DNA of 64,000 nucleotides from Acidimicrobiia bacterium (GTDB lineage Bacteria > Actinomycetota > Acidimicrobiia > UBA2766), in NCBI GenBank assembly GCA_038904395.1, contig JBCKKC010000003.1, forward strand, positions 1,856-65,855. Direction: 5' to 3'. The notes beneath the pieces were generated by a model. That model saw only the letters and a program-made list of their open reading frames with translations. It had not been told where the DNA came from and did not search any database. Of the stretch, positions 31,871 through 52,429 are shown piece after piece. Within the stretch, counting starts at the first letter, position 1, and the number at the start of each line of letters is the position of its first letter. The position numbers and the translations under genes were made by a program.

Positions 31871-32070
31871 TTGAATTGCTCGCGGAGCCTGTCCTGAGGA
31901 CGAGCGCCAGCGAGGACGTGAGGGCTCGCAAATGGATTCGGATTCCTGGATCCTCACGGTCGCCTGGCGGCTCCCTCAGGATGACGGAGGAGAGTGCTCG
32001 CTGCGCTCGCAACCGGGGGCACCCCGGTCGCCCCGACGGACTGGATTGCTTCGCTCCGCTCGCAATGACG
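31871..32070. repeat. MITE/BIME-like repeat copy R2 in the nuoL1-nuoM1 spacer
   Basis: Contains a degenerate B arm (gtcctgaggacgagcgccagcgaggacgtgagg), an inverted B arm (ggattcctggatcctcacggtcgcctggcggctccctcaggatgac) and an A arm (ctggattgcttcgctccgctcgcaatgacg). Confidence 0.85.
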
Positions 32071-32074
32071 GGGA

Positions 32075-34054
32075 TCATACAACTACCGCCAATACGACGC
32101 CAATCACACAGCTGGCGGCGAAAAGCACGCCAGCATATTGCTGGACTTGCCCTGTTTGCATGCGTCGCAAGAATCGTCCCGACTTGTTTGCTCCCGAAGC
32201 CGACTCGTTGTATGCAGTATCGATGACCTTCTGATCGATTGCGTATATGGCTAGCCCGGCTTTGACGGTGGCGGCCGCTGTGACGTTGAGGGTGGCATCG
32301 ATAATATTTTGGTTTGTCCAGTAGACGGCTTGGGCCAAGGGTTCCCGGATGAAGTAGACAATCGCCCCGTAGAGATGGTCGAGATAATACTTGTGGACCA
32401 GCACGTGGCGAATACGACGCAGGATGGCATAACGGTCGATGATGTCGCCGGGGGTCTTCTTCCACAGATAGATCCAGGTGGCAAGGAAAATACCGAGACC
32501 CGCTACCGCCACAGATGCAACCGCCAGAATTACGGTGCTCAAATCGAAGGCATGCTCACCGAGAGCGGGGAATTCCTTGACGACCTCATGCACGAGGTGT
32601 GGCTCAGCCCAGTGAGAAAAGACATTGAAGTCACCGGGCATGCCGAGGAATCCCACAAGGGCCGAGGGGATGGCCAGCAAGATCAGCGGTGTAGTCATCA
32701 AGGCTTCGGACTCGTGCGGGTGTCCGTCACCACGGTATTTGCCATGGAACACCATGTGAGTTGCCCGGAACATGTAGAACGCTGTCAGGAACGCCACCGA
32801 GAGTCCAATGGCCCAAACCCACTGATAGTTGTGGTGGAACGCTGCAGAGAGAATTTCGTCTTTGGAGAAGAAGCCGGCCAGCGGGAACACACCGCACAGA
32901 GCCAGGGTGCCGACCAGCCAAGTGCCGTAGGTCTTGCGCATCACGTGACGCAGTCCACCCATCTTGCGCATGTCTTGTTCGTGGACCGCATGAATTACAG
33001 ATCCAGACCCCAAGAAGAGCAAGGCCTTGAAGAAGGCATGCGTGAAGAGGTGGAACACGGCTGCGGGCCAGGCGCCCACTCCGATGGCGAAAACCATAAA
33101 CCCCAACTGGCTAATCGTTGAGTAGGCCAACACCTTCTTGATGTCGAATTGGACCAATGCCAACAGAGCGCCAATTATGGCCGTGATCGAGCCGATGATA
33201 ACGATCAAGTGCGGGGCGGCACCACTGATATCGAAGCCGACCACGAAGACCGGAAACATCCGGGCCAACAGATAGACCCCAGCCACAACCATGGTTGCAG
33301 CATGGATCAGTGCCGATACTGGAGTTGGACCCGCCATGGCATCGGGAAGCCACGTGTGCAACGGGAACTGGGCCGACTTTCCCATCGCCCCAATGAAGAG
33401 GCAGATCCCGGCAACCAACAAGATTGTGCCGGTGAATTCACCGGAAATGGCGGCCTCGTTGATCTCCTGAATGTTGAAGGTTCCGACCGCCCAAAAACAG
33501 ATAATCGTGCCAATCAGGAGACCGAGGTCACCGGTGCGAGTAGTCAGGAAGGCCTTAATACCAGCGCTCGAATTTGCTCGCTCTTCGAAGTAGTGCCCAA
33601 TCAGCAGGTAAGAGCAAAGGCCCATGATCTCCCAGCCGAAGATGGCCAGGAACAGCGAGTCGGCGACGATGAGCGTGAGCATGCCCGAGGTGAACAAGGA
33701 GAGGGTGGCAAAGTATTGCACATAACGGATCTCACCCCGCATGTAGGCAATCGAGTAAATCTGTACCATCAAGGAAATCGTCGTCACCACCACAGCCATA
33801 ACCGTGGTGAAACCGTCGATCGTGACCCCAACCCGCAGTGTGCCAGCGCCAAAGTTGAACCATTCCACAGACTGCAACACGTTGTCGTGGCCCATGGCGT
33901 TCTGAACGAATGCAACCATCGCCACGACCCACGAGAAGACCGCAGCCGGTATGGTCCAAACGTGCCCGCGCCCGCGGGTGACACTCTTGCCAAAGAAAAT
34001 GCAAAGCAAGAAAGCCAGAGCGTTGACAATGGGCAGAACCCATACGATGTTCAC
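32075..34054 (-). CDS. nuoL: NADH-quinone oxidoreductase subunit L (operon 1)
   Basis: 659 aa. Motifs WEIMGLCSYLLIGHYF and HTWLPDAMAGPTPVSALIHAATMVVAG. Confidence 0.92.
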   Translation of the reverse strand: MNIVWVLPIVNALAFLLCIFFGKSVTRGRGHVWTIPAAVFSWVVAMVAFVQNAMGHDNVLQSVEWFNFGAGTLRVGVTIDGFTTVMAVVVTTISLMVQIYSIAYMRGEIRYVQYFATLSLFTSGMLTLIVADSLFLAIFGWEIMGLCSYLLIGHYFEERANSSAGIKAFLTTRTGDLGLLIGTIICFWAVGTFNIQEINEAAISGEFTGTILLVAGICLFIGAMGKSAQFPLHTWLPDAMAGPTPVSALIHAATMVVAGVYLLARMFPVFVVGFDISGAAPHLIVIIGSITAIIGALLALVQFDIKKVLAYSTISQLGFMVFAIGVGAWPAAVFHLFTHAFFKALLFLGSGSVIHAVHEQDMRKMGGLRHVMRKTYGTWLVGTLALCGVFPLAGFFSKDEILSAAFHHNYQWVWAIGLSVAFLTAFYMFRATHMVFHGKYRGDGHPHESEALMTTPLILLAIPSALVGFLGMPGDFNVFSHWAEPHLVHEVVKEFPALGEHAFDLSTVILAVASVAVAGLGIFLATWIYLWKKTPGDIIDRYAILRRIRHVLVHKYYLDHLYGAIVYFIREPLAQAVYWTNQNIIDATLNVTAAATVKAGLAIYAIDQKVIDTAYNESASGANKSGRFLRRMQTGQVQQYAGVLFAASCVIGVVLAVVV

Positions 34055-34058
34055 AGCC

Positions 34059-34367
34059 TCAACCCTTTAGCATGTCGACTTCGTCAACGTTAACGCTGAC
34101 CCGGTTACGGAAAATAAGGAGCACGATGGCCAGGCCAATCCCTACCTCGGCAGCTGCCAGAGTAATGACGAAGAGGGCAAAGATCTGGCCGGTGATAGTC
34201 CCTAAGAAGGCGCCGAACGCGACGAGGTTGATCGTGACGGCGTTGACCATGAGCTCAACCGACATGAGAATCAGCACAGCATTGCGCCTCGCCAGCACAC
34301 CATATATGCCCAGACAGAACAGGGCCGCCGAGAGGATCAAGAACAGGTTTAACTTCATTGGAACCAT
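34059..34367 (-). CDS. nuoK: NADH-quinone oxidoreductase subunit K (operon 1); native start probably ATG 34358
   Basis: ~100-aa three-TM protein ([18 protein letters not shown]...[12 protein letters not shown]). The first three codons (MVP) lie inside repeat copy R3. Confidence 0.9.
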
Positions 34368-34542
34368 TCACCGCCAATCGGGCAGATGGTCGGTAACAGG
34401 CTTTCTCCGTCATTGCGAGGAGCCGGCTTTGGGGCGACGTGGCAACCTAGTCCGAAACCTGAGTCTTCGTGGCGTGAGTCACGGACTAGATTGCTTCGCT
34501 GCGCTCGCAACGACGGAAGGGGAGGACCTGGATGGTTACATA
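34361..34542. repeat. MITE/BIME-like repeat copy R3 in the nuoJ1-nuoK1 junction
   Basis: A arms cgtcattgcgaggagccggctttggggcgacgtggcaacctag and ctagattgcttcgctgcgctcgcaacgacg. Termini gaaccattcac and ggatggttac. Flanked by the direct repeat tcattg (34355-34360 and 34543-34548). Confidence 0.85.
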
Positions 34543-35181
34543 TCATTGCGCTGCCTCCTTGGGGCCGGTAGTGACAAGCGGGGGTCGATCAGGCGCCACT
34601 ATTGGAGCTGATTCCGGAGAGGGAGAGCCGCTTCTCGCTTGGACGTGCTCAGGATCATCGCGTCGGGCCAAAACCACTGCCCCAATCAGTGCCGCTAGCA
34701 GAACGAGCGAGATCGCCTCGAAAGGCAGCACCCAACGGGCGAACAAGTCCTCACCAATTTGGGCAGCCGTTGTTGGCTTAAGCCCAACGGGACCTTCGAG
34801 AAATATTTCGGCGCCATCAAAAACCGTGACAAAAGCTGCTACCAAGAGCGCCAAGATTGCAAGGGCCACGATCCCACCAAATATTCGCTGTGAGGGCTTG
34901 CTGTCGAGACGGGTCTCGGGGTCATCCGGATTGGCAACCGTCTGAGCCTTGGTGAGCATCACACCAAACATGAACAGCACCACGATGGCCCCGATGTAGA
35001 CAAGCACCTGAGTCCAGCCGACAAACTCTGCACCCAAGAGAATAAATATTGCGGCCGTTCCCGCCAAGACCAGCAGGAGATAGAGCGCTGCATGCACAAC
35101 ATTGCCTACCGTGACCAGACGCACTCCGGCGAAGAGCATCACGACAGCAATGACAGCAAATGCGATATTGGGAGCAAGCAT
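34543..35181 (-). CDS. nuoJ: NADH-quinone oxidoreductase subunit J (operon 1)
   Basis: 212-aa membrane subunit in the conserved I-J-K order. Paralogous to 51407..52204. Confidence 0.88.
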   Translation of the reverse strand: MLAPNIAFAVIAVVMLFAGVRLVTVGNVVHAALYLLLVLAGTAAIFILLGAEFVGWTQVLVYIGAIVVLFMFGVMLTKAQTVANPDDPETRLDSKPSQRIFGGIVALAILALLVAAFVTVFDGAEIFLEGPVGLKPTTAAQIGEDLFARWVLPFEAISLVLLAALIGAVVLARRDDPEHVQARSGSPSPESAPIVAPDRPPLVTTGPKEAAQ

Positions 35182-35769
35182 CTACTTGGGCGCCTTCATA
35201 GTCGAACCAGCTTCGTAGGCCGGTAGTTTCGGTTTAGTCGAGTCCCACTCGCCGAGACGGTCTTTGTCATGCAACAAATCGGAAATGCCAAGCTCGCTGT
35301 ACTCGTATTCGGGTGACCAGTGCAAGGCATCGAACGGACACACGTCAACGCAAATGCCACAGTACATGCACAGGGCATAGTCGATGTCGAAACGGTTGAG
35401 AATGTTCACTTGGCGAGGCTTGCCCCCCTCATGGCGAGGCGGCCGCTTCTCTTGATGACCTTCGATGTAGATACACCAGTCCGGGCATTCGCGGGCACAC
35501 AACATGCACACCGTACAGTTTTCCTCTTGAAGTCCAATTACCCCTCTTGCCCGGGGGTGAGGAGTCTCCTTGACGTGAGGATATTGGACAACCTGAGACC
35601 GTGACAGCATTGTGCGAAGCGTAACCCAGAGGCCGGTAAAGAGTCCTTTGATGCGGGCGGGATGAGCCGGGGATCCATATTTAAGAGTCTTGTTTGATGC
35701 CCCCGTCCCCTCATGGGGCTCGGATTCCGCCCCGGGGGCGCCTTGCTCCAGATCTTGTGCTTGAGTCAT
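35182..35769 (-). CDS. nuoI: NADH-quinone oxidoreductase subunit I (operon 1)
   Basis: Two 4Fe-4S ferredoxin motifs, [12 protein letters not shown] and [12 protein letters not shown]. Confidence 0.92.
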
Positions 35770-36771
35770 CTAAACAGTCACCACTTTGAATACACCTGTC
35801 AAGGCAATGTTTACGAGAGAAAGGGGAATCAGATACATCCAAGCAAAGCGCTGTAGCTGGTCCTCACGCAGGCGTGGATACGTAGAGCGCAGCCACAGAA
35901 AGATGAATACGAGCAGGGCGATCTTCACGGCCAAGACAAATGGGCCGATGTACTTGAGCATCTCGGGCGAGACAAACGGAATCCAATAGCCGCCGAGAAA
36001 GAGAGTCGCAGCAATTGCTGCTAAGGCAAAGTTGGACGCAAACTCGGCCATGAAGAAGAACAAGTAACGGAAACCGCTGTACTCGGTAGCGAAACCACTG
36101 ACAAGCTCGGATTCAGCAAAGGGCATGTCGAACGGGGCCTGGGCCAGTTCGGCCTGGCAAGCGACTATGAAGATGACAAAGCCCAATATTTGGGGCACGA
36201 AGTAAGGGACAACAATCCCCGTACCAAAGAGTTCAAACTGGGACTGGGCACTGACGATTCCCTGCAACGACATCGTGCCTGCTTGCATCACAACCCCGAC
36301 CACCGCCAGAACGAGAGGCAACTCGTAGGCGATAAGCTGTCCGGCGGCCCGGAACCCGCCAATCAACGAATACTTGTTGGCCGACGACCAACCAGCCATC
36401 AACACACCAATCGCCCCAATCGAACTCACGGCGAGGAAGACAAAGATCTGGCTATCGAGATTAACGACCTCCAGCACAGGCGAAAACGGAATCGTAATAA
36501 ACACCAACACGACAGACATGAGCACAACCCCGGGAGCCAGCGCAAACACCCAACGATCGGCATTCGTAGGGATGATGTCTTCCTTCTGGATGAACTTGAG
36601 GCCATCAGCCAACAGCTGAGCCCATCCATGGAAACGCCCAGCCTCCATTGGTCCCAGCCGGCTCTGCATGTGAGCCAAAATCTTGAGAAAGGCAAAGCCC
36701 GTAATCATGGCCGATACCGGCACCAAGACTGCGATGACAAGAATCTTTATGAGCAGCGCTACCCAGTCCAT
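35770..36771 (-). CDS. nuoH: NADH-quinone oxidoreductase subunit H (operon 1)
   Basis: 333-aa polytopic protein with GWSSANKYSLIGGFRAAGQLIAYE and PFDMPFAESELVSGF. Confidence 0.92.
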   Translation of the reverse strand: MDWVALLIKILVIAVLVPVSAMITGFAFLKILAHMQSRLGPMEAGRFHGWAQLLADGLKFIQKEDIIPTNADRWVFALAPGVVLMSVVLVFITIPFSPVLEVVNLDSQIFVFLAVSSIGAIGVLMAGWSSANKYSLIGGFRAAGQLIAYELPLVLAVVGVVMQAGTMSLQGIVSAQSQFELFGTGIVVPYFVPQILGFVIFIVACQAELAQAPFDMPFAESELVSGFATEYSGFRYLFFFMAEFASNFALAAIAATLFLGGYWIPFVSPEMLKYIGPFVLAVKIALLVFIFLWLRSTYPRLREDQLQRFAWMYLIPLSLVNIALTGVFKVVTV

Positions 36772-37946
36772 CAGCGATCCACGTCTCCCAGGATGAAGTA
36801 GAGGCTGCCGAGGATGGCGATGAGGTCGGGCACGAACGCATCCTGAAGCAACCAGGGCAAAACGCTCACGTTGGAAAAGCTAGCAGTGCGAATCTTGACC
36901 CGATACGGGATGCGCCCACCGCGAGACACGATGTAATAGCCCATCTCACCGAGCGGGTTCTCACCCCGAGAGTAGATCTCGCCGGGCGGAATCTGGATAA
37001 TCCGAGGCACCTTCGCCATGACTGGCCCCGACGGAAGCTTGTCAACGCACTGGAAAATGATCCGGCATGACTGGCGAATTTCCTCGAGACGGCACCAGGC
37101 CCTGGCATAGCAGTCGCCTCTTGTATCGGTGACGACATCAAAATCGAGCTCGTCATAGACGAGATAGGGCTGGTCTCTTCTCACATCGGCCGTTGATCCC
37201 GACGCACGAATGTTGGCACCTGAGACCCCGAACTCCAGGCCCTTTTCGAGCGGGATCACACCAATACCCATCGTGCGTTGCTGGAAGATGTCATTACCGA
37301 AGAGCAGCATCTCGACATCATCACACAGCCTCAAGACAACATCGAGGGCCGAGCGAGTCTCATCGATGAAACCCGCCGGCAGGTCGTCCTTCGTTCCGCC
37401 GACACGATTGAAGTTCGGGTGGAAGCGACCGCCCGTGACCGACTCGATCAGGTCAAGGATCCGCTCACGATCACGGAACGTGTGAAAGATCGGTGTGAGC
37501 GCGCCCAGTTCGATGCCGAATCCACCAATGAAAACGAGGAAGGTCGAAATACGAGCCATCTCGCTCAAGATCGTACGGATGTATTGCGCTCGGGGTGGCG
37601 CCTCCACTCCCAAAAGCTTCTCTGCACCAAGCACGAATGGGATCTCATTGGCATATCCGGATAGCCAGTCAATCCGATTCACGATCGTCGTGACTTGCGG
37701 ATAGGTACGAACTTCGCACAGCTTCTCATAGCCCCTGTGCATATAACCCAACACTGGGGTCACGCTAGTAACTCGTTCACCATCGACTTTGGCAACGAGA
37801 CGAAACACGCCGTGAGTCGAAGGGTGCTGAGGCCCGATGTTGAGCGTCATATCTTCGGTCTGAAGTTCAACGGCGACCATAGCGTCGGCCATGTGAGCAG
37901 CAGCTCTGGCCTGGTCCATCATGTCGGCTTGTCTCGTTGCAGTCAC
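36771..37946 (-). CDS. nuoD: NADH-quinone oxidoreductase subunit D (operon 1)
   Basis: NIGPQHPSTHGVFRL near the N-terminus and ILGDVDR at the C-terminus. Confidence 0.92.
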   Translation of the reverse strand: MTATRQADMMDQARAAAHMADAMVAVELQTEDMTLNIGPQHPSTHGVFRLVAKVDGERVTSVTPVLGYMHRGYEKLCEVRTYPQVTTIVNRIDWLSGYANEIPFVLGAEKLLGVEAPPRAQYIRTILSEMARISTFLVFIGGFGIELGALTPIFHTFRDRERILDLIESVTGGRFHPNFNRVGGTKDDLPAGFIDETRSALDVVLRLCDDVEMLLFGNDIFQQRTMGIGVIPLEKGLEFGVSGANIRASGSTADVRRDQPYLVYDELDFDVVTDTRGDCYARAWCRLEEIRQSCRIIFQCVDKLPSGPVMAKVPRIIQIPPGEIYSRGENPLGEMGYYIVSRGGRIPYRVKIRTASFSNVSVLPWLLQDAFVPDLIAILGSLYFILGDVDR

Positions 37947-38686
37947 TTGTCGCCACCCCCGGGAGCTTTGGCGTCACCAGAGTCGCCCTCAGCAGGAGCC
38001 GCATCGGCAAGCTCCACCACGTTGCCATCATCATCAAGCACAGGCGTGTCGTCGGGCATGTCTTCCACGTCAACAGCACCAGGCCACGGCTTCACGAGCC
38101 GCGCCCCTAGCTTGAAACTTTTGCGAAGGGGAAAGCCCTCAAACTCGTCGGGAAGATACAACTTCACAGGGTTCGGATGGCCAACCACCTCGATGCCAAA
38201 CATCTCCATCAGCTCACGTTCGTGCCAGTCGGCCCCACCAAAAACAGGAATCAACGTATCGATTTGGGCCTGCATCTTATCGAGATTTGTCTTTACTGTC
38301 ACGCTGTGAGCGAACTGAGTTGAATAGAACCGGGCAAACACTTGGAAGAATTCTCCGGTGGGCGATACGTAGTCGCCGCTTTTGGCATTCTGGGCCTTTG
38401 GAGCCTTAGGGGGTGCGGGCTTTGCGGTGTCATCAGCATCATCACTATCAGCATCGGCGGCCGGGTCGTCACCGTCGTCACTCCAGTCGATGGCCGAGAC
38501 AAACCCAAGAAAATCACAATGTATCTTGGGGGCTTCTCTGGCAAAGCGTGCTGCCTTCACCCAGGCGCTGGGCTCGACGGTCACGCACGCTTCTCCAAAA
38601 GCGATGGCCGAATCCACAACAGCAGAGCCAAAACTGACCCGATAGCCCTCGATGATTGTTTCAGGCGCGAGTGCCAATGGGCTCAC
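37943..38686 (-). CDS. nuoC: NADH-quinone oxidoreductase subunit C (operon 1) with acidic insertion
   Basis: The NuoC core ([18 protein letters not shown]...LRKSF) is interrupted by [17 protein letters not shown]. Position between nuoB and nuoD. Confidence 0.85.
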
Positions 38687-39176
38687 CCCGCCATTTTTCT
38701 TGGATGTTCTCGCCCTGGATCATCTTTTGTAATTCCAAAATGCCCTGCATGAGCGCCTCGGGCCTGGGCGGGCATCCGGGCACATAAACATCAACATGCA
38801 AGATCTGGTCGACACCCTTGGTTACCGAATATGAGTCCCAATAGGGGCCACCACAGTTCGAGCAAGAGCCCATCGAGATTACATACTTAGGCTCGGGCAT
38901 CTGCTCATAGATGCGTTTCACCGACGGGGTCATCTTGTCGGTGAGCGTGCCAGCAACAACCATCAGGTCGGCCTGGCGGGGCGATGACGGCAACGGCACA
39001 ATTCCGAATCGCATCACGTCGTAGCGGGGACTCGTGATAGCTGCACCCATCTCGATGGCACAACAGGCCAGCCCGAACTGGAACATCCACAGCGAATATT
39101 TGCGGCTCCAATTGAGCAGCCAAGCAATCGGCTTCGTTGGGCCCTTGTTCAGATTCACCCTTTCAAGCAGCGTCAT
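38661..39176 (-). CDS. nuoB: NADH-quinone oxidoreductase subunit B (operon 1)
   Basis: [21 protein letters not shown] and [11 protein letters not shown] are the N2 cluster ligand motifs. Confidence 0.93.
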
Positions 39177-39198
39177 AACCCACCCGACAAGCCTTCAA

Positions 39199-39564
39199 CT
39201 AAAGCCACTGCAAAACTCCCTTACGAATCGCATACAACAAAGACACTGCCAAGATGGCAACAAAGACCAACATTTCAACCAGGCCGGCAACACCCAACCC
39301 GCCCATGACAGTGGCCCAAGGGAAAATGAAGACGGCCTCAACGTCAAAGATCACGAACAGCAACGCAAAAATGTAATAGCGCACGTTTTGCTGCGACCAG
39401 CCATCACCGACCGGATCAACACCACACTCATAGGTCATCAACTTAGTGGCGGTCTGTCGCCTCGGCTGAACAACCCGCGCCATAGCCAACATTGCCCCAA
39501 ATAAGGCCAAACCAAGCCCGCCAAAGCAAGCAACCGTTAGGTATGAAGCGTAATAGTCTGACAA
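39199..39564 (-). CDS. nuoA: NADH-quinone oxidoreductase subunit A (operon 1)
   Basis: 121-aa three-TM protein with YECG and FVIFDVEAVFIFPWA. Confidence 0.9.
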   Translation of the reverse strand: MSDYYASYLTVACFGGLGLALFGAMLAMARVVQPRRQTATKLMTYECGVDPVGDGWSQQNVRYYIFALLFVIFDVEAVFIFPWATVMGGLGVAGLVEMLVFVAILAVSLLYAIRKGVLQWL

Positions 39565-39647
39565 AAACCCAAGCCTCTCTCAAATGAGCAGCGGTGCGGC
39601 GCTCGCAATCTTAACCTGGCGCAGCTGTCTGTGACAAATTTCCCTCC

Positions 39648-39810
39648 CGTCATTGCGAGCCCTGGGCTTTGACAGGGCGTGGCAATCCAGGCATTAAACA
39701 TTTGCTAGCGCAGCGAGCAATTCGCAATGGGCTTAGCGTGTGTGGGTTTTCAGGGCTTTCGGACACGTACGCTGTGGGCTGTGGGCTGTTAGGGATTGTT
39801 TCGCTCGGCC
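39648..39810. repeat. MITE/BIME-like repeat copy R4 (partial/degenerate) upstream of nuoA1
   Basis: Intact A arm cgtcattgcgagccctgggctttgacagggcgtggcaatccagg, plus gcgcagcgagcaattcgcaatgg. The right arm is degenerate (agggattgtttcgctcggcc). Confidence 0.65.
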
Positions 39811-39888
39811 CACCATCCCATAACGCTCAGCACAACTCGAGACACTATACTACTGGTATTACTACTCAGAGCAACGTGAGAGGTACTC

Positions 39889-40182
39889 ATGCCGGTCGTC
39901 AAGACATCCCTGTCTATTGAAGAAGAATTGTTGAATGAGGCTAAGGCGATCTCTGGGCCCAGGGGCGTCTCTTCACTAGTGTCCGATAGCTTGCGGCGCG
40001 AGATTCAACGCCGCCGATTGCTCACGACGTTGGACGAGATGCTTGCCGAAAATCCCCCCACCTTGGAAGAACTACAACGGGCCCGCAAAGCCGTGCAGTC
40101 CGTGGTTGCTTACACTGATGAAGAGATGCAAGAGTCTCTTCCCGATTCACTGGCCCGGGATTCCGATCAGGCCTCGGCATAG
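39889..40182 (+). CDS. vapB: Type II antitoxin, RHH/VapB-like
   Basis: The 97-aa N-terminus MPVVKTSLSIEEELLNEAKAISG is an RHH-type strand-helix. It sits immediately upstream (3-nt gap) of a PIN-domain gene. Confidence 0.75.
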   Translation: MPVVKTSLSIEEELLNEAKAISGPRGVSSLVSDSLRREIQRRRLLTTLDEMLAENPPTLEELQRARKAVQSVVAYTDEEMQESLPDSLARDSDQASA

Positions 40183-40185
40183 CCA

Positions 40186-40736: not shown

Positions 40737-40743
40737 TCCGTCC

Positions 40744-44332: not shown

Positions 44333-44409
44333 CCATCTCATCCATGCTCCCTCAAGAAAATCCGCCAGTCTCTAAGGTTGCGTTAAGGTTTAGCGACTTT
44401 ACTTAGTGG

Positions 44410-45270
44410 ATGTTTACTTCATCTGTCAAATTCAAGCTTCGAACAATTGTTGTCGGTTCCCTATGTGCAGTGGTGCTCATCGGCCAGGGCCTGGCGATAC
44501 ATTCAACACGAGCGTCATCGTTGAACGCTCTATCGGGATCGGTATCGAAGGGCCGTCTCGTCGGACACAGCAGCAAGGCCAAGTCCGGAACCGAGCCACT
44601 TGTTTTCGAATTTCTCCATAGCATCCTTACTATTCCTCAGCCAGCACCTGTTGATTTGGCACCCGTTCCTCCGGTCGCTGACAGCGTTGCACCTCCCGCA
44701 CCAGAGCCACCCCCCGCTCCGGAACCCGAGCCGGAGCCCGAGCCCGACGACGGACTCCGTGTCCATGTCAAGTCAGAAGGGCCACATAATCTCGAGGATT
44801 GGGCCCGCCAAGTGTTGCGGTCGTTAGCCAAGGGTGCCGGCAAACCCGAAGATGAGGTTGTCACTGAGGGCCATATCGAAGCGCTCGTCACGTTCGCCTA
44901 CTGCGAAGGCGGCGGCATCAAAGGCCACTTGGGCCAATACAATCCCCTCAACACTAAGCGTAGGGATTCCGACCTGAGAGGCCAGAAGGCTGGTGGTGGT
45001 GCCTCGGTCAACTTTCCCACTCTGGATCACGGTGTCGAAGCTGCCGTCCGCACGATTGAGCAAAACCACTACAACAGACTGCTGGCTGCGTTGCTGGACC
45101 CAGGTGCAGATGCAGCATGCTTCTTCAATGCGCTGGGAAGTCCCCACGGAACAAAAGGCAACTGCAACTGGAGCGAAAACGACGCCGGTCATCGCTCCAC
45201 CTACCTACAATTCCTAAAGCGAGTGCAAAGAAACTACGAGCACTACGCTCACGAAACCTTGCGCGGCTAA
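44410..45270 (+). CDS. Secreted protein, unknown function, with PE-repeat linker
   Basis: Signal-like VVGSLCAVVLIGQGLA. Linker PAPEPPPAPEPEPEPEPD. The C-terminal ~170 aa has no motif I recognise. Confidence 0.6.
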   Translation: MFTSSVKFKLRTIVVGSLCAVVLIGQGLAIHSTRASSLNALSGSVSKGRLVGHSSKAKSGTEPLVFEFLHSILTIPQPAPVDLAPVPPVADSVAPPAPEPPPAPEPEPEPEPDDGLRVHVKSEGPHNLEDWARQVLRSLAKGAGKPEDEVVTEGHIEALVTFAYCEGGGIKGHLGQYNPLNTKRRDSDLRGQKAGGGASVNFPTLDHGVEAAVRTIEQNHYNRLLAALLDPGADAACFFNALGSPHGTKGNCNWSENDAGHRSTYLQFLKRVQRNYEHYAHETLRG

Positions 45271-45362
45271 CACTCTCGCTCGACAAGGCAATGAGATGGT
45301 GGGCCGAGCGAAGCATTCCCCAGCAGCAGGCTAAGGCATCCAGAAGCCACAAGGCCCAGCAA

Positions 45363-46907
45363 CTAGAAAATGATGCCGGCGTGGTTGGCGATGTTCATGA
45401 GGGGTTCGGGGTAGATACCGAAGAAGAGGGTGAGGGCAACCGCGATGCCGAGGGCAAGGCCGGATCCGAAGTTGACTCGCACGTTTCCGCCCGGTTTGTC
45501 AATCAAGTCGACTGAGTCGAGCATGTACATGTTGACAACGAGCCGCACGTATATGTAAAGCGCCACCACGCTGGCCACCGTTCCGATCACAATCAGAACC
45601 CATTGGTTGGACGCGGCCGCTCCCGAGAAGACGAGGAATTTGGCCATAAAGCCCGAGGTGCCCGGGATACCAGCCATAGCGAATAGGAAGAACGTGAGGA
45701 TGAGTGCCAGGATGGGTTCATCTTGGTAGAAGTTGCGGTAATCCTTTAGTTCGGAGCCTCGTTCCCCTCGTTTAGCCGCAAGGCCAACTACTGCGAAGCT
45801 GCCCAGCACCATAAAGGTGTATGCGACGAGGTAGAAGAGGGCTCCCTGCACACCTTTGGGGTTGGCCGCGATCACCCCGATGAGAATGAAACCGGCGTTC
45901 GCTATCGATGAATAGGCCAGCATTCGCTTCATGTTTGTCTGCACCAAAGCCATGATGGACCCAACGAGCATAGTCAGAACTGCGATACCCCACAGGAGAG
46001 GCTGCCAGTCAAGTCGGTATGCTTCGAATGCGATCAGCACCACCCGGAAAAGGGCTGCAAAAGCGGCCACTTTGGCTCCCGATGCCATGAATCCCACCAC
46101 TGGCGACGGGGCTCCTTCGTAAACATCAGGCGTCCACATGTGGAACGGGACGGCGGCCATCTTGAAGGCCAGCCCGATCACCATGAAAGCAAGCCCCAAG
46201 AGGACGACACCCTGGTTGGCCAGTAGGTTGCTTGAAAAGTATTGGGCTATCGCCGGAATGTTCATCGTGCCGGTGCCACCGTATGTGAGAGCTATACCGA
46301 AGGCGAAGATCGCGGAGGAGTAGGCGCCCAAGAGTAGATACTTCATGCCTGCTTCTTGGGCCGTGGGCCGATCCCGATCGAAGGCGACAAGTACATATAG
46401 ACAGATTGAGAGGAGCTCAAGGCCAAGGAAGACCATGATTAGATTGTTAGCACTCACCATGAGCTGGATACCGGCAGCACAGAAGAGCATCAAGATGTAG
46501 TACTCAGCCTTGTTGAGCGATTCTCGTTGCAGGTAACCGACCGACAACAACAGAGCCATGACTAGCGCTACCGCTGTCAGGACTATGAGAAAAGCCGAGA
46601 ATCGATCGGCGGCGATCATGCCCCCAAAAGAGTAGCGATAGCGGTCGCCGCTGAGATCAAACCAGAGAAAGACCCCCGCCCCCAGCGACGCTAACGCCCC
46701 TGCAATGGCCACAGAGGCATAAACAATTGTGCTCTTGAACCGCTTGACGGCGATCATGAACAAGATGAGCAGGCCCGTGGCACAGAGAATAATCTCAGGC
46801 GCTATGGCGTAAAAGTCAGCCGGAGGCGCCTTGATTGGCTGTTGAGCGGGTATGTCTGAGACTGCCCTGACGAGGGTAAGGGCCGATTGGGCTAAGTTCG
46901 AAATCAT
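45363..46907 (-). CDS. nuoN: NADH-quinone oxidoreductase subunit N (operon 2)
   Basis: 514-aa antiporter-like subunit. Last gene of the 14-gene operon. Confidence 0.9.
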   Translation of the reverse strand: MISNLAQSALTLVRAVSDIPAQQPIKAPPADFYAIAPEIILCATGLLILFMIAVKRFKSTIVYASVAIAGALASLGAGVFLWFDLSGDRYRYSFGGMIAADRFSAFLIVLTAVALVMALLLSVGYLQRESLNKAEYYILMLFCAAGIQLMVSANNLIMVFLGLELLSICLYVLVAFDRDRPTAQEAGMKYLLLGAYSSAIFAFGIALTYGGTGTMNIPAIAQYFSSNLLANQGVVLLGLAFMVIGLAFKMAAVPFHMWTPDVYEGAPSPVVGFMASGAKVAAFAALFRVVLIAFEAYRLDWQPLLWGIAVLTMLVGSIMALVQTNMKRMLAYSSIANAGFILIGVIAANPKGVQGALFYLVAYTFMVLGSFAVVGLAAKRGERGSELKDYRNFYQDEPILALILTFFLFAMAGIPGTSGFMAKFLVFSGAAASNQWVLIVIGTVASVVALYIYVRLVVNMYMLDSVDLIDKPGGNVRVNFGSGLALGIAVALTLFFGIYPEPLMNIANHAGIIF

Positions 46908-48664
46908 CCGCCACCTCCTGGGGCTGGTGCTGGATTAGGCGCTGGCACTGCAGGGGTGACCACTCCCGGGGCCGGAGCCCCTGGCACTGCGGGCGAGCCG
47001 CCGGGGCCAGTAGTAGCGGGCCCAGCGGGCCCAGCGGGCCCTCCTGGTGCCGGCTGCTGGCCGCCCGGGCTGGTTCCCGTCTTGGCATTGCCGTCGTGCT
47101 TAGGCCCAGCCTTTTGCAAGGCTGGGTTCTTGAGCGGGCTCGTCACTTTAGGCTCGACATATTCCTGTTTCGTGCCCTTCGTACCCTTCTCAACACGATC
47201 AACTACGAATTCAGCTGAAGGTGTGATGCGCTCCAACATCGGAGCTGGGTAGAGGTCGAGGAAAAGAATGGCAACCACAAACGGGACAATAACTACAAGT
47301 TCCCGGGGACTCAGGTCTTTGAGCACCTTGTTCTTCGGGTTGTCAAGCGGCCCCCAGAAAAGTTTGCCATAGACGTAGAACAAGTAGATAGCGCCCAACA
47401 CGATCCCTACCGCTCCTACCACGGCCCACCACCTGTGCACAGCGAACGTGCCAAAGAGAGTAAGCACTTCACCAACGAAACTGTTGAGACCTGGCAGCCC
47501 GGCAGCGGCAAACGTTACCAACAAGAAAATGCCGGCAAAGATAGGCATGTTCTTCTTTAGTCCACCCCACTCGTTCAGGTCATATGTGTGCCGCCGGTCA
47601 CCGAACATTCCGATCAAGAAGAAGAGCGCACTGGTGATCAGTCCATGGTTAACCATTTGGGCCACACCACCGACGATTCCGGTCGTGGTGATGGCAAAAA
47701 TGCCCAGGACAATGAAACCGATGTGACTAATGGAGGTATAGGCAATCAGGCGCTTGACATCACGCTGCCCCAGCGCCACAAATGCACCATAGATAATGCC
47801 GATCACTCCCAAAGTGAGCAAGATAGGAACGGCTTCGACTGCAGCCCGGGGAAACAGCGGCAAACAAAACCGCAACATTCCGTATGTGCCCAGTTTCAAG
47901 AGCACACCAGCCAGGAAGCCCGAGCCCGCAGTTGGTGCCTGGGCATGGACGTCAGGCAACCACGTATGGAAGGGCACAACCGGCGCCTTCACCATGAAGC
48001 TGATCATGAACCCCCAAAACAGCCAGCGCTGCTGAGTGAGGGTGAAACTTGTTTTGAGGTGATCGGCGAAAGCGAATGTGGGCGTGCCGCCGTGGCCCGA
48101 AATGAAGGCAACAGCGATGAGTGCAGCTAACAAGAATGCAGAACCAAAAGCCGTATACAAGATGAACTTGACAGCCGCATAGACACGACGCTCCCGACCC
48201 CAGCGGCCGATGATGAAATACATCGGTACGAGCATCATCTCCCAGAAAACAAAGAACAAGAACAAGTCGGCCGAGATAAAGACACCGATCAGCGCTGCCT
48301 CTAGCCACAGCTTGAAAATGATAAGATGTTTGGCCCGATGGATTGACGAGCCAGAACCGATAATGGCGAGCGGAAACATAAACGCTGTTAGAACGACCAT
48401 GAAGACGCTAATGCCATCGACACCGAGACGATATGAAATTCCAAACGATGGAATCCACTTGACGCTTTCAGTCCATTGCAGCCCGGGCACGCCGGTCTTG
48501 AAACCAATCACAAGCCAAATCGCCAACGCAAAGGTGATACCGCTAAATACCACACCCAAGATTTGAGCGACGTTCTGGCGGGCTCGCGGCACAAAGCCAA
48601 TCACCACTGCGCCAATTACGGGCATGAACAGCAAAAGAGACAGCAGGGGAAATGAACCTTTCAT
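46904..48664 (-). CDS. nuoM: NADH-quinone oxidoreductase subunit M (operon 2) with ~90-aa Pro/Gly-rich C-terminal tail
   Basis: HTWLPDVHAQAPTAGSGFLAG. The tail is ...GQQPAPGGPAGPAGPATTGPGGSPAVPGAPAPG.... Confidence 0.9.
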   Translation of the reverse strand: MKGSFPLLSLLLFMPVIGAVVIGFVPRARQNVAQILGVVFSGITFALAIWLVIGFKTGVPGLQWTESVKWIPSFGISYRLGVDGISVFMVVLTAFMFPLAIIGSGSSIHRAKHLIIFKLWLEAALIGVFISADLFLFFVFWEMMLVPMYFIIGRWGRERRVYAAVKFILYTAFGSAFLLAALIAVAFISGHGGTPTFAFADHLKTSFTLTQQRWLFWGFMISFMVKAPVVPFHTWLPDVHAQAPTAGSGFLAGVLLKLGTYGMLRFCLPLFPRAAVEAVPILLTLGVIGIIYGAFVALGQRDVKRLIAYTSISHIGFIVLGIFAITTTGIVGGVAQMVNHGLITSALFFLIGMFGDRRHTYDLNEWGGLKKNMPIFAGIFLLVTFAAAGLPGLNSFVGEVLTLFGTFAVHRWWAVVGAVGIVLGAIYLFYVYGKLFWGPLDNPKNKVLKDLSPRELVVIVPFVVAILFLDLYPAPMLERITPSAEFVVDRVEKGTKGTKQEYVEPKVTSPLKNPALQKAGPKHDGNAKTGTSPGGQQPAPGGPAGPAGPATTGPGGSPAVPGAPAPGVVTPAVPAPNPAPAPGGGG

Positions 48665-48665
48665 A

Positions 48666-48875
48666 TGGACTCACTACCTGCTTGGCTGTCATTGCAAGGA
48701 GGCGTTGGCAGTGACTGCACCATGCAAAGCGTCTTGATCCGTTTTGAATTGCTCGCTTCGCTCACAAAAATTCGGATTCCTGGATCCTCACGGTCGCCTA
48801 GCGGCTCCCTCAGGATGACTGGGATTCCTGGATCCTCACGGTCGCCTAGCGGCTCCCTCAGGATGACGAAGTGCG
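48666..48875. repeat. MITE/BIME-like repeat copy R5 in the nuoL2-nuoM2 junction
   Basis: A-like arm gtcattgcaaggaggcgttggcagtgac, core fragment gatccgttttgaattgctcgcttcgctcac, and two tandem B arms. Flanked by the direct repeat tcata (48661-48665 and 48876-48880). Confidence 0.85.
48774..48867. repeat. Exact tandem duplication of the 46-bp B arm (period 48 bp)
   Basis: ggattcctggatcctcacggtcgcctagcggctccctcaggatgac occurs at 48774-48819 and again at 48822-48867, separated by tg. Confidence 0.95.
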
Positions 48876-50825
48876 TCATACGCCGGACCCCCCACGCAAC
48901 ATCATGTAGACCACGATGAGCAGCGCGCCACCAAGTATCACAGCCGCGTACAGACGCACGTAACCGGTCTGTAACTTGCGGCCGAAGCGTCCCGCGCTAG
49001 TAATTCCATGCGCAGTTCCTAACACAGCGCCATCAACACCCTTCTGGTCTGCTATTTCTAACACCTTGACAAGGTCCCAGCCCGGCCGTTCAAAGGCCAT
49101 TTGCGTAGCTTCGTCGTAATAAAACTTGTGGGCTGCCAACTGCGGCAAGGGCCCAAAGCGGGTTGCCAGCTTGGCTCTGGAACCGGCCGAGCTCTTGAGC
49201 CAAATCTTGGTAGCGATGGCGACACCGATAAGAGCAACAGCGAGGCTGACGGCAAAGAGCACAATCGTCTCAAGCGACCAGACTTCGCCGGCGCCACCAG
49301 CGGTCTCGAACGTGGGCTCAAGCCACTTGTGCAAAACGTTCCAATCGGGAATACCTAACACTCCGAGCAACGTGGCACCCACAGCAAGTATCCCGAGCGG
49401 CACCGTCAAAACCTTGGGTGACTCATGCGGCTTTACGCCTTCAGCCCAGTTGGCCTTGCCCCAAAAGACTCGGTAGTACTGACGGAACATGTACATCGCT
49501 GTGAGCAAAGCGCCAATGAGGCCCAACACGTATGTGACCTTGCCCCAGCCGTAGTGCGAGGTGAACTCGGCAGATAGAACAGCATCTTTGGACCAGAAAC
49601 CACTGAACGGAAAAATCCCACAGATCGCCAGCAACCCACACAAATAGGTGATGTGGGTGACAGGCATTTTCTTGCGCAGGTTACCCATCTTGCGAATGTC
49701 CTCTTCGCCGCCCATGCCGTGCATAACCGATCCGGCACAGAGAAACAAGAGTGCCTTAAAGAAACCATGCGTGAGCATGTGAAAGAGGCCGGCGGTATAG
49801 CCAGCAGCACCAATACCGACGCCAGCAACCATATAACCGATCTGACTGATCGTCGAATAGGCCAAGATCTTCTTGAAGTTGTTTTGACCGAGCGCAATAA
49901 TCGCCGCCCACACCGTGGTTGCTGAACCGATGAATACCGTGATCAGTTGCGCTGCCGGGGCGAGATCAAATATGGGATGCACTCTGGCGATGAGGTAGAC
50001 GCCCGCTACCACCATCGTTGCCGCGTGCATGAGCGCCGAAACCGGTGTCGGTCCCTGCATGGCGTCGGGCAGCCAAAGGTAAAGAGGGATCTGGGCCGAC
50101 TTGCCGGTGACACCCATCAATAACAACAAGGCAATAGCGGTAGCTACCCCGGTGGATAACAAATCGGTGTGAGCGAACACGACCGAGAAATCCAGGCTGC
50201 CAAAGGTGAAGAAGATAAGCATCATGGCAATTACGAAACCGAAGTCACCAATCCGGTTGACGATCATTGCCTTCTTACCAGCGGTGGCATTGATCGGCTC
50301 GTTATACCAAAACCCAATCAGCAGGTAGCTGCAAGCACCGACTAGTTCCCAACCAACAAAGAGCACCAGGAAGTCGTTGGCGAGAACCAAGATGAGCATG
50401 CCGGCTACGAAGAGGTTCAGGTAGGAGAAAAAGCGAGTGAAATCGGGGTCACCCTTCATGTAGCCGTTGGCGTAGATGTGAATCATCAAGCCAACAAAAG
50501 AGACCAACAACAACATGATTATCGTGAGCGGGTCGACCCGAATCGACGCCTTGACATCGAAGCCGCCACCGGTAATCCAGGTATAGAGATTTTTGGTAAA
50601 GACCCGATGATGTGCGGATTGACTCATCAAACCGACATAAGCCAGGACACTAAAGACGAATGAAAGGCCGACAGCGCCAACGGCAATCAGGCCCCCGAAG
50701 GGTGCCCTTAAACGTTTGCCGAGTAGGGCGAGGAGGCCGGCCGACAAGAGCGGCAACAGCGGGATTATCCAGGCAATTTTAAGAAATGTCATTGACCCCA
50801 CCTCGGCAGCTGTGACCATTCCCAT
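48876..50825 (-). CDS. nuoL: NADH-quinone oxidoreductase subunit L (operon 2); native start probably ATG 50792
   Basis: WELVGACSYLLIGFWY and LWLPDAMQGPTPVSALMHAATMVVAG. Most of the first 11 codons (MGMVTAAEVGS) run through the terminus of repeat copy R6 and its flanking direct repeat. A gaggtgg SD precedes the ATG at 50792. Confidence 0.9.
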   Translation of the reverse strand: MGMVTAAEVGSMTFLKIAWIIPLLPLLSAGLLALLGKRLRAPFGGLIAVGAVGLSFVFSVLAYVGLMSQSAHHRVFTKNLYTWITGGGFDVKASIRVDPLTIIMLLLVSFVGLMIHIYANGYMKGDPDFTRFFSYLNLFVAGMLILVLANDFLVLFVGWELVGACSYLLIGFWYNEPINATAGKKAMIVNRIGDFGFVIAMMLIFFTFGSLDFSVVFAHTDLLSTGVATAIALLLLMGVTGKSAQIPLYLWLPDAMQGPTPVSALMHAATMVVAGVYLIARVHPIFDLAPAAQLITVFIGSATTVWAAIIALGQNNFKKILAYSTISQIGYMVAGVGIGAAGYTAGLFHMLTHGFFKALLFLCAGSVMHGMGGEEDIRKMGNLRKKMPVTHITYLCGLLAICGIFPFSGFWSKDAVLSAEFTSHYGWGKVTYVLGLIGALLTAMYMFRQYYRVFWGKANWAEGVKPHESPKVLTVPLGILAVGATLLGVLGIPDWNVLHKWLEPTFETAGGAGEVWSLETIVLFAVSLAVALIGVAIATKIWLKSSAGSRAKLATRFGPLPQLAAHKFYYDEATQMAFERPGWDLVKVLEIADQKGVDGAVLGTAHGITSAGRFGRKLQTGYVRLYAAVILGGALLIVVYMMLRGGSGV

Positions 50826-51061
50826 ACCCGAGCCAGAGTGGCCCTACCAGGCCCTTCGTCATTGCGAGCCCTGGGCTTTGGCAGGGCGTAGCAATCCAGG
50901 CTTTGCTGTGTTGCGAGCGCAGCGAGCAATTCGAAATGGCCCGAGTCTGATGCTAAAGTCCTGCTCGCAAGCTCGCAGAATATTCTAAAGCCTGGATTGC
51001 TTTGTCGCCGCAGAGCCGGCTCCTCGCAATGACGGGAGGTGGGAGGTGAATTGCTAGTCAT
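50815..51061. repeat. MITE/BIME-like repeat copy R6 in the nuoK2-nuoL2 spacer
   Basis: A arms cgtcattgcgagccctgggctttggcagggcgtagcaatccagg (50857-50900) and cctggattgctttgtcgccgcagagccggctcctcgcaatgacg (50991-51034). Flanked by the 8-bp direct repeat cagctgtg (50807-50814 and 51062-51069). Confidence 0.88.
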
Positions 51062-51083
51062 CAGCTGTGGGTTCCCGATCAAA

Positions 51084-51404
51084 TCAGCCTCGCATCCTGG
51101 ACAAGTTATCTACAGAAGTGTTTGCCCGTCGGCGGAAGATAGCAATCAAAATGCCCAGCCCGACCATGACCTCAACTGCCGCCACAACCAGAATGAAAAA
51201 CACGAAGATCTGGCCGCTCAGGTCGTTGAGCTTGGCGCCAAACGTGATCAACGTGAGATTGACAGCGTTGAGCATGAGCTCAACGCACATAAACATGACC
51301 AACGCACTCTTGCGAACAAGGAAACCAAGCGCTCCAATCATGAAGATCGCAACAGCAAGGAGCAGGTATGCATCTGCACCGGGACGCGTAATAGCAAAAA
51401 ACAT
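51084..51404 (-). CDS. nuoK: NADH-quinone oxidoreductase subunit K (operon 2)
   Basis: 106-aa three-TM protein (FMCVELMLNAVNLTLITF...VVAAVEVMVGLGILI). Confidence 0.9.
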   Translation of the reverse strand: MFFAITRPGADAYLLLAVAIFMIGALGFLVRKSALVMFMCVELMLNAVNLTLITFGAKLNDLSGQIFVFFILVVAAVEVMVGLGILIAIFRRRANTSVDNLSRMRG

Positions 51405-51406
51405 AT

Positions 51407-52204
51407 CTAAACGACCTTTTCTGAATCCGTCGAGGCCGTTGCGGCCGAGCCTGATGCGGATGACGCCGGTTTAGCTGAGCTTGAGGCGGGGGCCGAGGCG
51501 GATGCCACCGGTTCAGCCTCGCTCGAACCTGCCGCGTCACGCGAGACACTTGCATTCCCCGCACCAGAAGCATCGGCGCCTGAGCTGGCTGAATAATCAG
51601 TGTCACGGTCCCCGTCGCTATCGTCGCCTCCATCATCGTCGCCGGGGGCATCACTCCGACCCACTCCAGCACCGCGCAAGCCCTTGGGGCGTTTCGCCAG
51701 TACGATCACACCCACGATGGCGGCCACAACCAGAATCGAGGTGACCTCGAAGGGAAGCAAGTATTGGGTAAAGAGTGACTGGGCGATGGCTTGCACATTG
51801 CCACCCGCCGCAGTAATGGCCGCTTTCGTATCGGTGCCGGGGGCTCCGGTGGGCCAACCGCCCGTAACCAGCAAGATCGGAACAAGAAGCACAGCAACGG
51901 CAGCTAAAAATCCGTAGCGAAAAGAGGCTCGACTCAACATTCGAGTCTCTCGCTCGTCACCTCGGTCAACACCGAGCATCATGATGACGAACAAGAAGAG
52001 CACGACGATGGCCCCGGTATAGACAATGATTTGCACGGTCGATAGGAAGAAGGCGCTTTGCTCAAGGAACAGCACCGCAATCGATACAAGGGTCACCACT
52101 AGCGACAAGGCTGAATGCACGGGGTTGGCCAAGAACACGACTCCGAGAGCGCCGCCCAGGGCGAGAGCGCCAAATATTGCATAGAGAATCCACTCAGCCA
52201 TCAT
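51407..52204 (-). CDS. nuoJ: NADH-quinone oxidoreductase subunit J (operon 2) with ~95-aa acidic/Ser-Ala-rich C-terminal tail
   Basis: NuoJ core in the first ~170 aa, then ...DAPGDDDGGDDSDGDRDTDYSASSGADASGAG...SASAPASSSAKPASSASGSAAT. Confidence 0.88.
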   Translation of the reverse strand: MMAEWILYAIFGALALGGALGVVFLANPVHSALSLVVTLVSIAVLFLEQSAFFLSTVQIIVYTGAIVVLFLFVIMMLGVDRGDERETRMLSRASFRYGFLAAVAVLLVPILLVTGGWPTGAPGTDTKAAITAAGGNVQAIAQSLFTQYLLPFEVTSILVVAAIVGVIVLAKRPKGLRGAGVGRSDAPGDDDGGDDSDGDRDTDYSASSGADASGAGNASVSRDAAGSSEAEPVASASAPASSSAKPASSASGSAATASTDSEKVV

Positions 52205-52211
52205 GGCCTCC

Positions 52212-52429
52212 CTTCAGATCCTCTGTCATCCTGAGCTCTGGCGCCAGCCAGGGCGTGAGGATCCATCTGTAGCGAAGCCGCAGGTCTACCCGCAGATTCG
52301 ATCCATTTTGAATCGCTCGCTGCGCTCGCAACATTCGGATTCCTGGATCCTCACGGTCGGCTAGCGCCTCCCTCAGGATGACGAAAGGCTTGGTAGCGCC
52401 ACTTTTGCGAGGAGGGGGTGAATGGTTAC
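52212..52429. repeat. MITE/BIME-like repeat copy R7 in the nuoI2-nuoJ2 junction
   Basis: B arms gtcatcctgagctctggcgccagccagggcgtgaggatcca and ggattcctggatcctcacggtcggctagcgcctccctcaggatgac. Core shared with R1. Terminus gtgaatggttac (52418-52429). Flanked by a 14-bp direct repeat, ccatcatggcctcc (52198-52211) and ccatcgtggcctcc (52430-52443). Confidence 0.9.

Follow-up and report, generated by a model that had tools for sequence, protein, structure and literature searches.

CGTC-tagged REP hairpins in probable palindromic insertion elements at the gene junctions of two nuo operons from an Acidimicrobiia bacterium

CGTC-tagged repeats of the repetitive extragenic palindromic (REP) class are short units with an unpaired CGTC (or TGTC or CCTC) end, a stem that opens with an A-T pair and a three-nucleotide tail close to CCA (Di Nocera, De Gregorio & Rocco 2013, BMC Genomics 14:522; PMC3733652). 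Their stems are 8–9 bp and their loops 4–5 nt long, with other loop lengths in Bradyrhizobium CGTC-1, and they occur mainly as inverted dimers around spacers of 20–100 bp that are often conserved or structured (PMC3733652). They sit between genes of the same direction or convergent genes, near the 3' end of the upstream open reading frame (ORF); many REPs have been argued to act as RNA, and two of the Rickettsia palindromic elements (RPEs), RPE-4 and RPE-6, are CGTC REPs (PMC3733652). Unlike GTAG REPs, they have no associated transposase, and in the survey they never flanked a gene for a REP-associated tyrosine transposase (RAYT) or an IS200-type gene (PMC3733652). CGTC REPs are widespread. 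Here we describe seven elements, R1 to R7, from one 64-kb window, i.e. the whole stretch of 64,000 nucleotides analysed (Acidimicrobiia bacterium, assembly GCA_038904395.1, contig JBCKKC010000003.1, positions 1,856 to 65,855 of the forward strand), to which all positions below refer. The window contains two nuo operons for complex I and offers clean junctions before and after insertion, with the ancestral ATGA overlaps still present in relatives. The elements are probably non-autonomous palindromic insertion elements, built of CGTC-tagged REP hairpins and persisting in the nuo junctions via open frames.

Other described systems share part of this organization. Bacterial interspersed mosaic elements (BIMEs) of E. 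coli are also mosaics of alternating REPs with few conserved linker motifs, the modules being shuffled among copies, but their REPs are of the unrelated GTAG-type Y/Z class, and BIME function is defined by binding of IHF, gyrase or Pol I. The RPEs are likewise palindromes that are open in frame and tolerated in translated regions; they are located within genes and are incorporated into the host protein, whereas the window elements carry a separate frame between two genes. Miniature inverted-repeat transposable elements (MITEs) resemble the window elements in being small, in lying inside transcription units with long RNA hairpins and, for part of the family, in having terminal inverted repeats and flanking duplications; co-transcribed MITEs include the Correia elements of Neisseria and ERIC of Yersinia. 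Here, however, the duplication has no fixed length and the interior consists of REP units, not of a deleted transposase gene. We know of no autonomous insertion sequence (IS) that matches the window elements; an IS66-like origin, which we take to imply GTAA ends and an 8-bp duplication, was a candidate that we do not use.

The first-pass annotation had placed seven copies of a hairpin repeat in the window. The modules are present at all seven sites, and a repeat finder recovers the same families independently, with inverted repeats between arms as well. Fourteen canonical hairpin units occupy these seven intergenic sites, and two divergent units bring the number of sites to eight, the additional one (45293–45320) lying just 3' of nuoN2. 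Chance or low-complexity similarity is ruled out: the strict unit pattern GTCATYSYGAGN{4,25}RSRATC matches ten times against 0.05 expected from shuffles, and a 51-nt core is shared by R1 (6597–6647, + strand) and R7 (52267–52317) where no second copy would be expected (two copies against 0). The A arm is found in two intact copies and one split by an intron, the B arm in four copies of 89–100% identity according to the repeat finder plus one variant, and the terminal motif GTGAATGGTTAC in three perfect copies and three with one or two mismatches. The observation of the repeat is confirmed. An excess at nuo-internal junctions is present but small and, over 64 kb, does not amount to a demonstrated bias, with 5 of about 23 such junctions occupied and 3 of about 28 others, as tallied from the ORF list.

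The A and B arms and the “inverted partner” of the former, taken at first for separate modules, are all present but turn out to be subtypes of a single hairpin unit with the layout CGTCAT-NNN-GAG-[variable hairpin]-GNN-N'N'N'-ATCCAGG. An unpaired CGTC head is followed by a 5-bp stem (A-T, T-A and three covarying pairs), a GAG/GNN internal loop, an inner hairpin of variable length and a CCA tail, giving units of 30–44 nt. Between A and B arms all three variable stem pairs differ in a compensatory way (TGC/GCA to CCT/AGG). Heads of the 14 canonical units read CGTC in 11, TGTC in two and AGTC in one, with TGTC also in a degenerate inverted B unit of R2, and the 3' tail is ATCCAGG in 11 of the 14. 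Across 41 distinct units, the AU pair of stem columns 5/20 and the UA pair of columns 6/19 never vary; stem positions are paired in 94.6% of cases versus 85.6% after shuffling, a value that none of 500 shuffles reaches. Changes on both sides are present at each of the three variable pairs, and Watson-Crick triplets, of seven types, occur in 259 of 271 units gathered without a pairing constraint. Inverted dimers make up R1, R3, R4, R6 and R7, the spacer between the two units being 35–100 nt long; R2 and R5 add units in direct orientation. The description of the copies as BIME-like mosaics stands, arms being exchanged between subtypes from copy to copy in inverted dimers with conserved spacers, as does the pairing of arms into long hairpins: whole-element folds lie far beyond those of shuffles (z = −6.4 for R1, −5.9 for R3, −5.3 for R7 and −4.6 for R6).

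Judged by sequence, the units fit the known CGTC-tagged REP superfamily and the family is not a new kind. They share with CGTC REPs the CGTC or TGTC head, the A-T/T-A opening of the stem, the CCA tail, the inverted dimers, the structured spacers and the lack of a neighbouring transposase, and the window elements are also intergenic and close to the upstream stop. They differ in the stem, which is 5 bp long and followed by the GAG/GNN internal loop and a variable inner hairpin, as opposed to an 8–9 bp stem with a 4–5 nt loop, and in the spacers, which measure 35–96 nt in the window versus a median of 22 nt among dimers sampled from other genomes. The dimers are, moreover, embedded here in a larger element that has inverted repeats at its ends and direct repeats on its flanks, and the host looks related to Actinomycetota, a phylum outside the five given for CGTC repeats (PMC3733652). 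What is unusual is the lineage-specific composite form in an Actinomycetota-related host; the superfamily itself was already described.

Units of the CGTCAT-NNN-GAG type are also carried by 76 stretches from IMG/VR and by at least 120 from genomes, the latter mostly of Alphaproteobacteria; other hosts among the matches listed are some Myxococcales, Bacteroidota, Spirochaetes, Acidobacteria and Beta- and Gammaproteobacteria. The A-short unit (6674–6703 and 32041–32070) is 100% identical over 31–35 nt to units of Alphaproteobacteria, and the proteins of the host look actinobacterial; as a sequence match, this identity may point either to horizontal spread or to strong shared constraint. When the elements were compared by BLAST with 1.67 Mb of fetched loci, only A-type REP units matched, and core, linkers, B arms and intron did not. 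The exact B-arm pattern has no match in the genome contig collection or the JGI metagenomes, nor has the pattern of outer linker plus terminal repeat in the JGI metagenomes. Rfam contains no family for the spacers even at E ≤ 1 and no model for the units, and a literature search by sequence (GTCATTGCGAG and its complement) returned unrelated primer matches only. Ordinary dimers in the collected loci have their tags outward in 111 cases versus 14, and the flanks of 102 distinct ordinary CGTC dimers from other genomes show neither direct repeats above control nor complementarity past the heads. The terminal repeat was also considered as a general companion of CGTC REPs, an idea that was rejected, a single chance-level case (locus L016) being found in 1.5 Mb.

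Collinearity extends over 175–260 bp, at 57–67% identity, among R1 (less its intron), R7, R6 and R3. Their common plan consists of a left linker, a first REP unit, a core of 35–96 nt, a second REP unit and a right linker of about 33 nt, and they share 23–45 nt outside the REP heads. R1 (5839–6749, + strand), located between two paralogous surface-protein genes, is a complete composite element of 222 bp once the intron is subtracted. Its terminal inverted repeats (5839–5850 and 6738–6749) are perfect over 12 nt, extending to 15 nt, and are flanked by the direct repeat ACTTTTT (5832–5838 and 6750–6756). The A-long REP unit is split by the intron into a 5' part, CGTCATT (5862–5868), and a 3' part (6558–6594, + strand), and the A-short unit CGTCATTGCGAGCGGAGCGAAGCAATCCAG lies at 6674–6703 on the − strand. 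R7 (52212–52429, + strand), in the nuoI2/nuoJ2 spacer, is collinear with R1 but has B-type arms (52224–52266, + strand, and 52342–52383, − strand). It retains a single terminal repeat (52418–52429), which supplies the TAA stop of nuoI2, and is flanked by GGAGGCCAYGATGG (52430–52443 and 52198–52211).

R3 (34361–34542, − strand), a complete element in the nuoJ1/nuoK1 spacer, combines an A-short unit (34486–34515, − strand) with an A2 unit (34408–34450, + strand); its terminal repeats (34528–34539 and 34360–34371) are degenerate and its flanking direct repeat is CAATGA (34543–34548 and 34355–34360). R6 (50815–51061, − strand), between nuoK2 and nuoL2, contains an A2 unit (50991–51034, − strand) and an A-long unit (50857–50900, + strand) within degenerate terminal repeats, and is flanked by CACAGCTG (51062–51069 and 50807–50814). 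With regard to transcription, R7 is inverted relative to R3 and R6. The MITE-type ends noted earlier, i.e. the terminal inverted repeat GTAACCATTCAC...GTGAATGGTTAC, are therefore a feature of part of the family: perfect in R1, degenerate in R3 and R6, reduced to one end in R7 and missing from R2, R4 and R5. The B units are 95–100% identical, as compared with 43–67% for whole elements, so selection, gene conversion or replacement is maintaining the likeness of the arms.

The two nuoL/nuoM spacers contain elements without terminal repeats. R2 (31849–32074, − strand), between nuoL1 and nuoM1, consists of an A-short unit (32041–32070, − strand), a B unit (31945–31986, − strand) and the degenerate inverted B unit (31889–31924, + strand). 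R5 (48665–48875, − strand), between nuoL2 and nuoM2, consists of two tandem B units (48827–48868 and 48779–48820, − strand), a core and a degenerate inverted A unit (48687–48728, + strand), and is flanked by the direct repeat TATGA (48876–48880 and 48661–48665). The REP units begin 4 nt after the stop of nuoL1 and 7 nt after that of nuoL2. R4 (39648–39819, + strand) is made up of an A-long unit (39648–39691, + strand), a core-like spacer and a divergent inverted unit (39792–39819, − strand). The latter is a REP-like unit (GGGATGGTGGGCCGAGCGAAACAATCCC) without a CGTC head; it stands upstream of operon 1, and its counterpart downstream of operon 2, the solitary unit 3' of nuoN2 (45293–45320, + strand), is 86% complementary to 39785–39821.

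Operon 1 (about 28841–39564, − strand) encodes 11 complex I subunits and lacks nuoEFG, and operon 2 (about 45363–62041, − strand) encodes 14. The two are 5.8 kb apart on the same strand, each with its own distant relatives. Pfam matches of the flanking genes bear out the assignment of elements to the L/M and J/K junctions of operon 1 and the L/M, K/L and I/J junctions of operon 2. Five copies are thus inside the operons, as annotated, but R4 is not, because it lies upstream of nuoA1, from which a promoter-like site separates it. The nearest relatives that we found have about 60–66% protein identity, and the best named matches are Acidimicrobiia and other Actinomycetota. In these relatives the J/K, I/J and L/M genes overlap by 1–4 nt, mostly as ATGA, and K/L gaps are 3–20 nt; one L1/M1 gap is 43 nt. 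None of the relatives' nuo loci examined contains these REP units, although the comparison is with relatives that are distant at this amino-acid identity. Spacers at the matching junctions of the window measure 175–258 nt. As distant relatives have tight or ATGA-overlapping nuo junctions, the elements are derived insertions. A distant relative (locus L077, 8164–8428) has a 265-nt nuoD/nuoH spacer full of tandem repeats of about 30 nt (GGAGCACCGYCAGGTGCGGAGCMATGTARC), which is a different repeat.

The flanking sequences retain traces of insertion. Direct repeats of 7, 6, 5, 8 and 14 bp flank R1, R3, R5, R6 and R7, respectively, and when an element is taken out with one copy of its repeat, a junction of the ATGA type is restored. 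For R3, removal yields ...AAGGAGGCAGCGCAATGAAGTTAAACCTG, where a relative has ...GGGAGCCGCAGCCATGAAGCTGAACCTC at the matching place. In R3, R5 and R7 the stop/start overlap is among the duplicated bases, and as a result a stop for the upstream gene and the ATG of the downstream gene both survive; in R7 that stop is the TAA of the terminal repeat. The variation in repeat length could be due to an enzyme that makes variable duplications, or to 8-bp duplications blurred by later mutation.

Each of the five intercistronic spacers is crossed by exactly one open frame on the sense strand, whose start coincides with the upstream stop or lies a few bases from it and whose end is on or beside the real downstream start. 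We call these relay frames. In R3, R5 and R7 the relay opens on the duplicate of the downstream gene's start codon; a native Shine-Dalgarno sequence is clear just upstream of it in R3 and R7, and R5 has a weak G-run only. In R2 (31851–32078, − strand) the relay comprises 75 codons, its ATG overlapping the nuoL1 stop (ATGA) and its TAA standing 2 nt before the GTG of nuoM1. The R3 relay (34355–34546, − strand; 63 codons) starts at the duplicated nuoK1 start, after the native AAGGAGG and overlapping the nuoJ1 stop, and its TGA overlaps the real nuoK1 ATG at 34358. That of R5 (48661–48879, − strand; 72 codons) has an ATGA overlap at each end and terminates at nuoM2. In R6 (50789–51082, − strand) it has 97 codons from a TTG at 51082 or 90 from an ATG at 51061, and terminates in a TGA overlapping what is probably the native ATG of nuoL2 (50792), which is preceded by GAGGTG. 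The R7 relay (52194–52433, − strand; 79 codons) begins at the duplicate of the nuoJ2 start, passes the real nuoJ2 ATG by 8 nt and ends at the duplicated ancestral stop of nuoI2. The chance of all five frames being stop-free is 3e-5 by dinucleotide shuffling, or between 1e-4 and 8e-4 when calculated from observed open-frame rates, which are 16% for the irrelevant frames of the elements in the window and about 24% for spacers of comparable size that contain REPs in other genomes. The insertions separate nuoK1 and nuoM2 from their native ribosome-binding sites, and exactly these two genes are served by perfect ATGA-to-ATGA relays.

The relay pattern fits a survival filter. A mechanism can be envisaged in which an element of 175–260 bp, consisting of two inverted units around a conserved spacer of 35–96 nt, with outer linkers and GTAACCATTCAC terminal inverted repeats, would be moved by an enzyme acting in trans and would enter ancestrally tight or overlapping nuo junctions. 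It would duplicate a few target bases there, so that stop and start both survive. The elements would then be transcribed as part of the polycistronic mRNA, in which they could fold into long hairpins, and the copies that persist would be those with one frame kept open. From the duplicated start, ribosomes could traverse the element and terminate at or beside the real start downstream, which would keep termination-reinitiation coupling and ribosome cover over a structured spacer of about 200 nt. Transcription within the nuo mRNAs, asserted at the outset, is plausible: the five spacers contain no terminator-like site and promoter-like matches in them are no commoner than in shuffles, making read-through transcription likely, as a prediction. 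The arrangement of the frames suggests that translational coupling may be preserved rather than broken, the opposite of the decoupling proposed in the first-pass annotation.

These junctions show arrival by insertion with a short duplication, REPs within a larger unit with its own ends, and one open frame in every operon copy. A more general possibility, which we put forward only tentatively, is that settling in coupled, overlapping junctions of essential operons needs both a duplication that regenerates stop and start and an open linking frame, a “relay ORF” delivering ribosomes through the hairpin of about 200 nt; as a corollary, CGTC REPs in this lineage may ride as passengers in a larger element that has terminal inverted repeats as its bounds. 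If translation of the relay frames does occur, it would provide a simple account of how structured selfish DNA is tolerated in tightly coupled operons; if it does not, the locus would be another case of REP-type repeats in intergenic spacers.

Several observations weigh against insertion elements that persist through open frames. Perfect terminal repeats are confined to R1, with none in R2 and R5, and single units are of no more than modest stability as DNA hairpins (−1.4 to −9.8 kcal/mol, with z between +0.6 and −2.2). The low identity of the copies (43–67%) means that the insertions are old, and a Pfam scan of the main ORFs of the 64 kb, which left several smaller ORFs unscanned, revealed no transposase, Y1/RAYT gene or reverse transcriptase. 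Direct repeats of 5, 6, 7, 8 and 14 bp do not fit a single classical DDE transposase. The relay pattern was noticed post hoc, and GC-rich palindromes are poor in stop codons, antisense frames being open in 4 of 15 cases. In 68 REP-bearing spacers from other genomes there is no sense excess, with 85 open frames in sense and 81 in antisense, so the relay pattern is not general to spacers that contain REPs.

The hairpins could instead be adaptive RNA elements that set stability or processing along the nuo mRNAs and tune subunit ratios. REP stem-loops of E. coli protect upstream mRNA segments, and the window spacers are transcribed on this reading and predicted to form very stable RNA hairpins, with REP units just past both nuoL stops and the L/M junction hit in both operons. 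The case made for RNA action of many REPs points the same way (PMC3733652). An adaptive role is nevertheless unlikely to be the explanation: the distant relatives have overlapping junctions without elements, flanking duplications and terminal repeats favour insertion over evolution in place, modules also occur outside the operons (R1, R4 and the unit at 45293), and orientation to transcription varies, R7 being reversed. More doubtful still is the proposal that small proteins are encoded by the spacers and that the repeats are coding repeats; this is a very improbable reading, even though there is one open frame per spacer (63–97 residues) and a good Shine-Dalgarno sequence before some start codons. 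Differences between B copies compensate the hairpin (GCC..GGC to GGC..GCC) but alter the peptide (PLGD to ALAD), so the frames are not conserved proteins. One and the same unit is read in three frames across copies, and the peptides share only the residues that the palindrome imposes.

A further parallel in architecture is the REPIN, a REP doublet forming a hairpin, in which two inverted REPs and their spacer fold into one long hairpin that is the mobile unit (Bertels & Rainey 2011; PMC3116915). The window elements could be REPINs that a single-copy RAYT (Y1 HUH), encoded elsewhere in the genome, mobilizes in single-stranded hairpin form: they have the inverted doublet with a short spacer folding as a whole, the unpaired tetranucleotide head and arms far better conserved than the elements around them. 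We regard this as improbable too, to about the same degree as an adaptive RNA role. REPINs have GTAG-type heads and are tied to a RAYT gene that they flank, while no Y1 gene is visible among the scanned ORFs of the window and the surveyed CGTC REPs have no such neighbour (PMC3733652). The mobile unit of a REPIN should, furthermore, end at the heads, but in the window elements conserved sequence and inverted repeats continue past them and direct repeats flank the whole, neither of which is seen around the 102 ordinary dimers. We know of no REPINs described as having target duplications or as having terminal repeats beyond the REPs. Composite insertion elements carrying REP dimers therefore remain the reading that we prefer.

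R1 had been annotated as a 911-bp copy of the repeat; it is in fact the 222-bp element interrupted in its A arm by an ORF-less group II intron of 689 nt (5869–6557, − strand; GUGUG...CUAC, with ends read from the sequence). Rfam models match on the − strand, RF01999 with 73.9 bits (threshold 36) at 6354–6486 and RF00029 with 46.5 bits (threshold 40) at 5869–5944. The insertion point in the A-long arm is CTCGC|AATGACG, and excision restores the unit exactly to CGTCATTGCGAGCCC. As in other ORF-less bacterial group II introns, D1–D4, D5 and D6 match the Rfam models, with a GUGUG 5' end and an AC 3' end; no intron-encoded reverse transcriptase or maturase is present, and 689 nt leave no room for an ORF. 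Distant relatives, with about 66% identity over D1–D3, are full-length introns on Rhizobiales plasmids, some of them inside IS genes, and one of these (L206) encodes a 434-residue TIGR04416 protein. The inspected relatives reside in IS genes, whereas the R1 intron resides in a REP arm and has no encoded protein. We make no class assignment, class IIC (hairpin-targeting) having been considered, because the nearest relatives are the Rhizobiales plasmid introns in IS genes. A GCGAG loop complementary to the 5' exon CUCGC was considered as an exon-binding site and rejected, as a 5-mer match is expected by chance and L206 has no equivalent by eye.

The window also contains four tandem paralogous large genes on the + strand (25–2646, 2860–5700, 6837–8834 and 8959–10956), for which Pfam finds only a TIG domain, in the last. 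A hairpin, GGCCAGGAAACGGG...CCCGTTTCCTGGCC, follows three of the four paralogues (at 2716, 5770 and 11025). Further on, an ORF of 955 residues without a Pfam match (11184–14051, − strand) has many glycine-rich repeats of the GGN type. A DEAD-box helicase ORF (17065–17841, + strand) has 258 residues, versus 547 for the one beside nuoA2 in relatives, and may be truncated.

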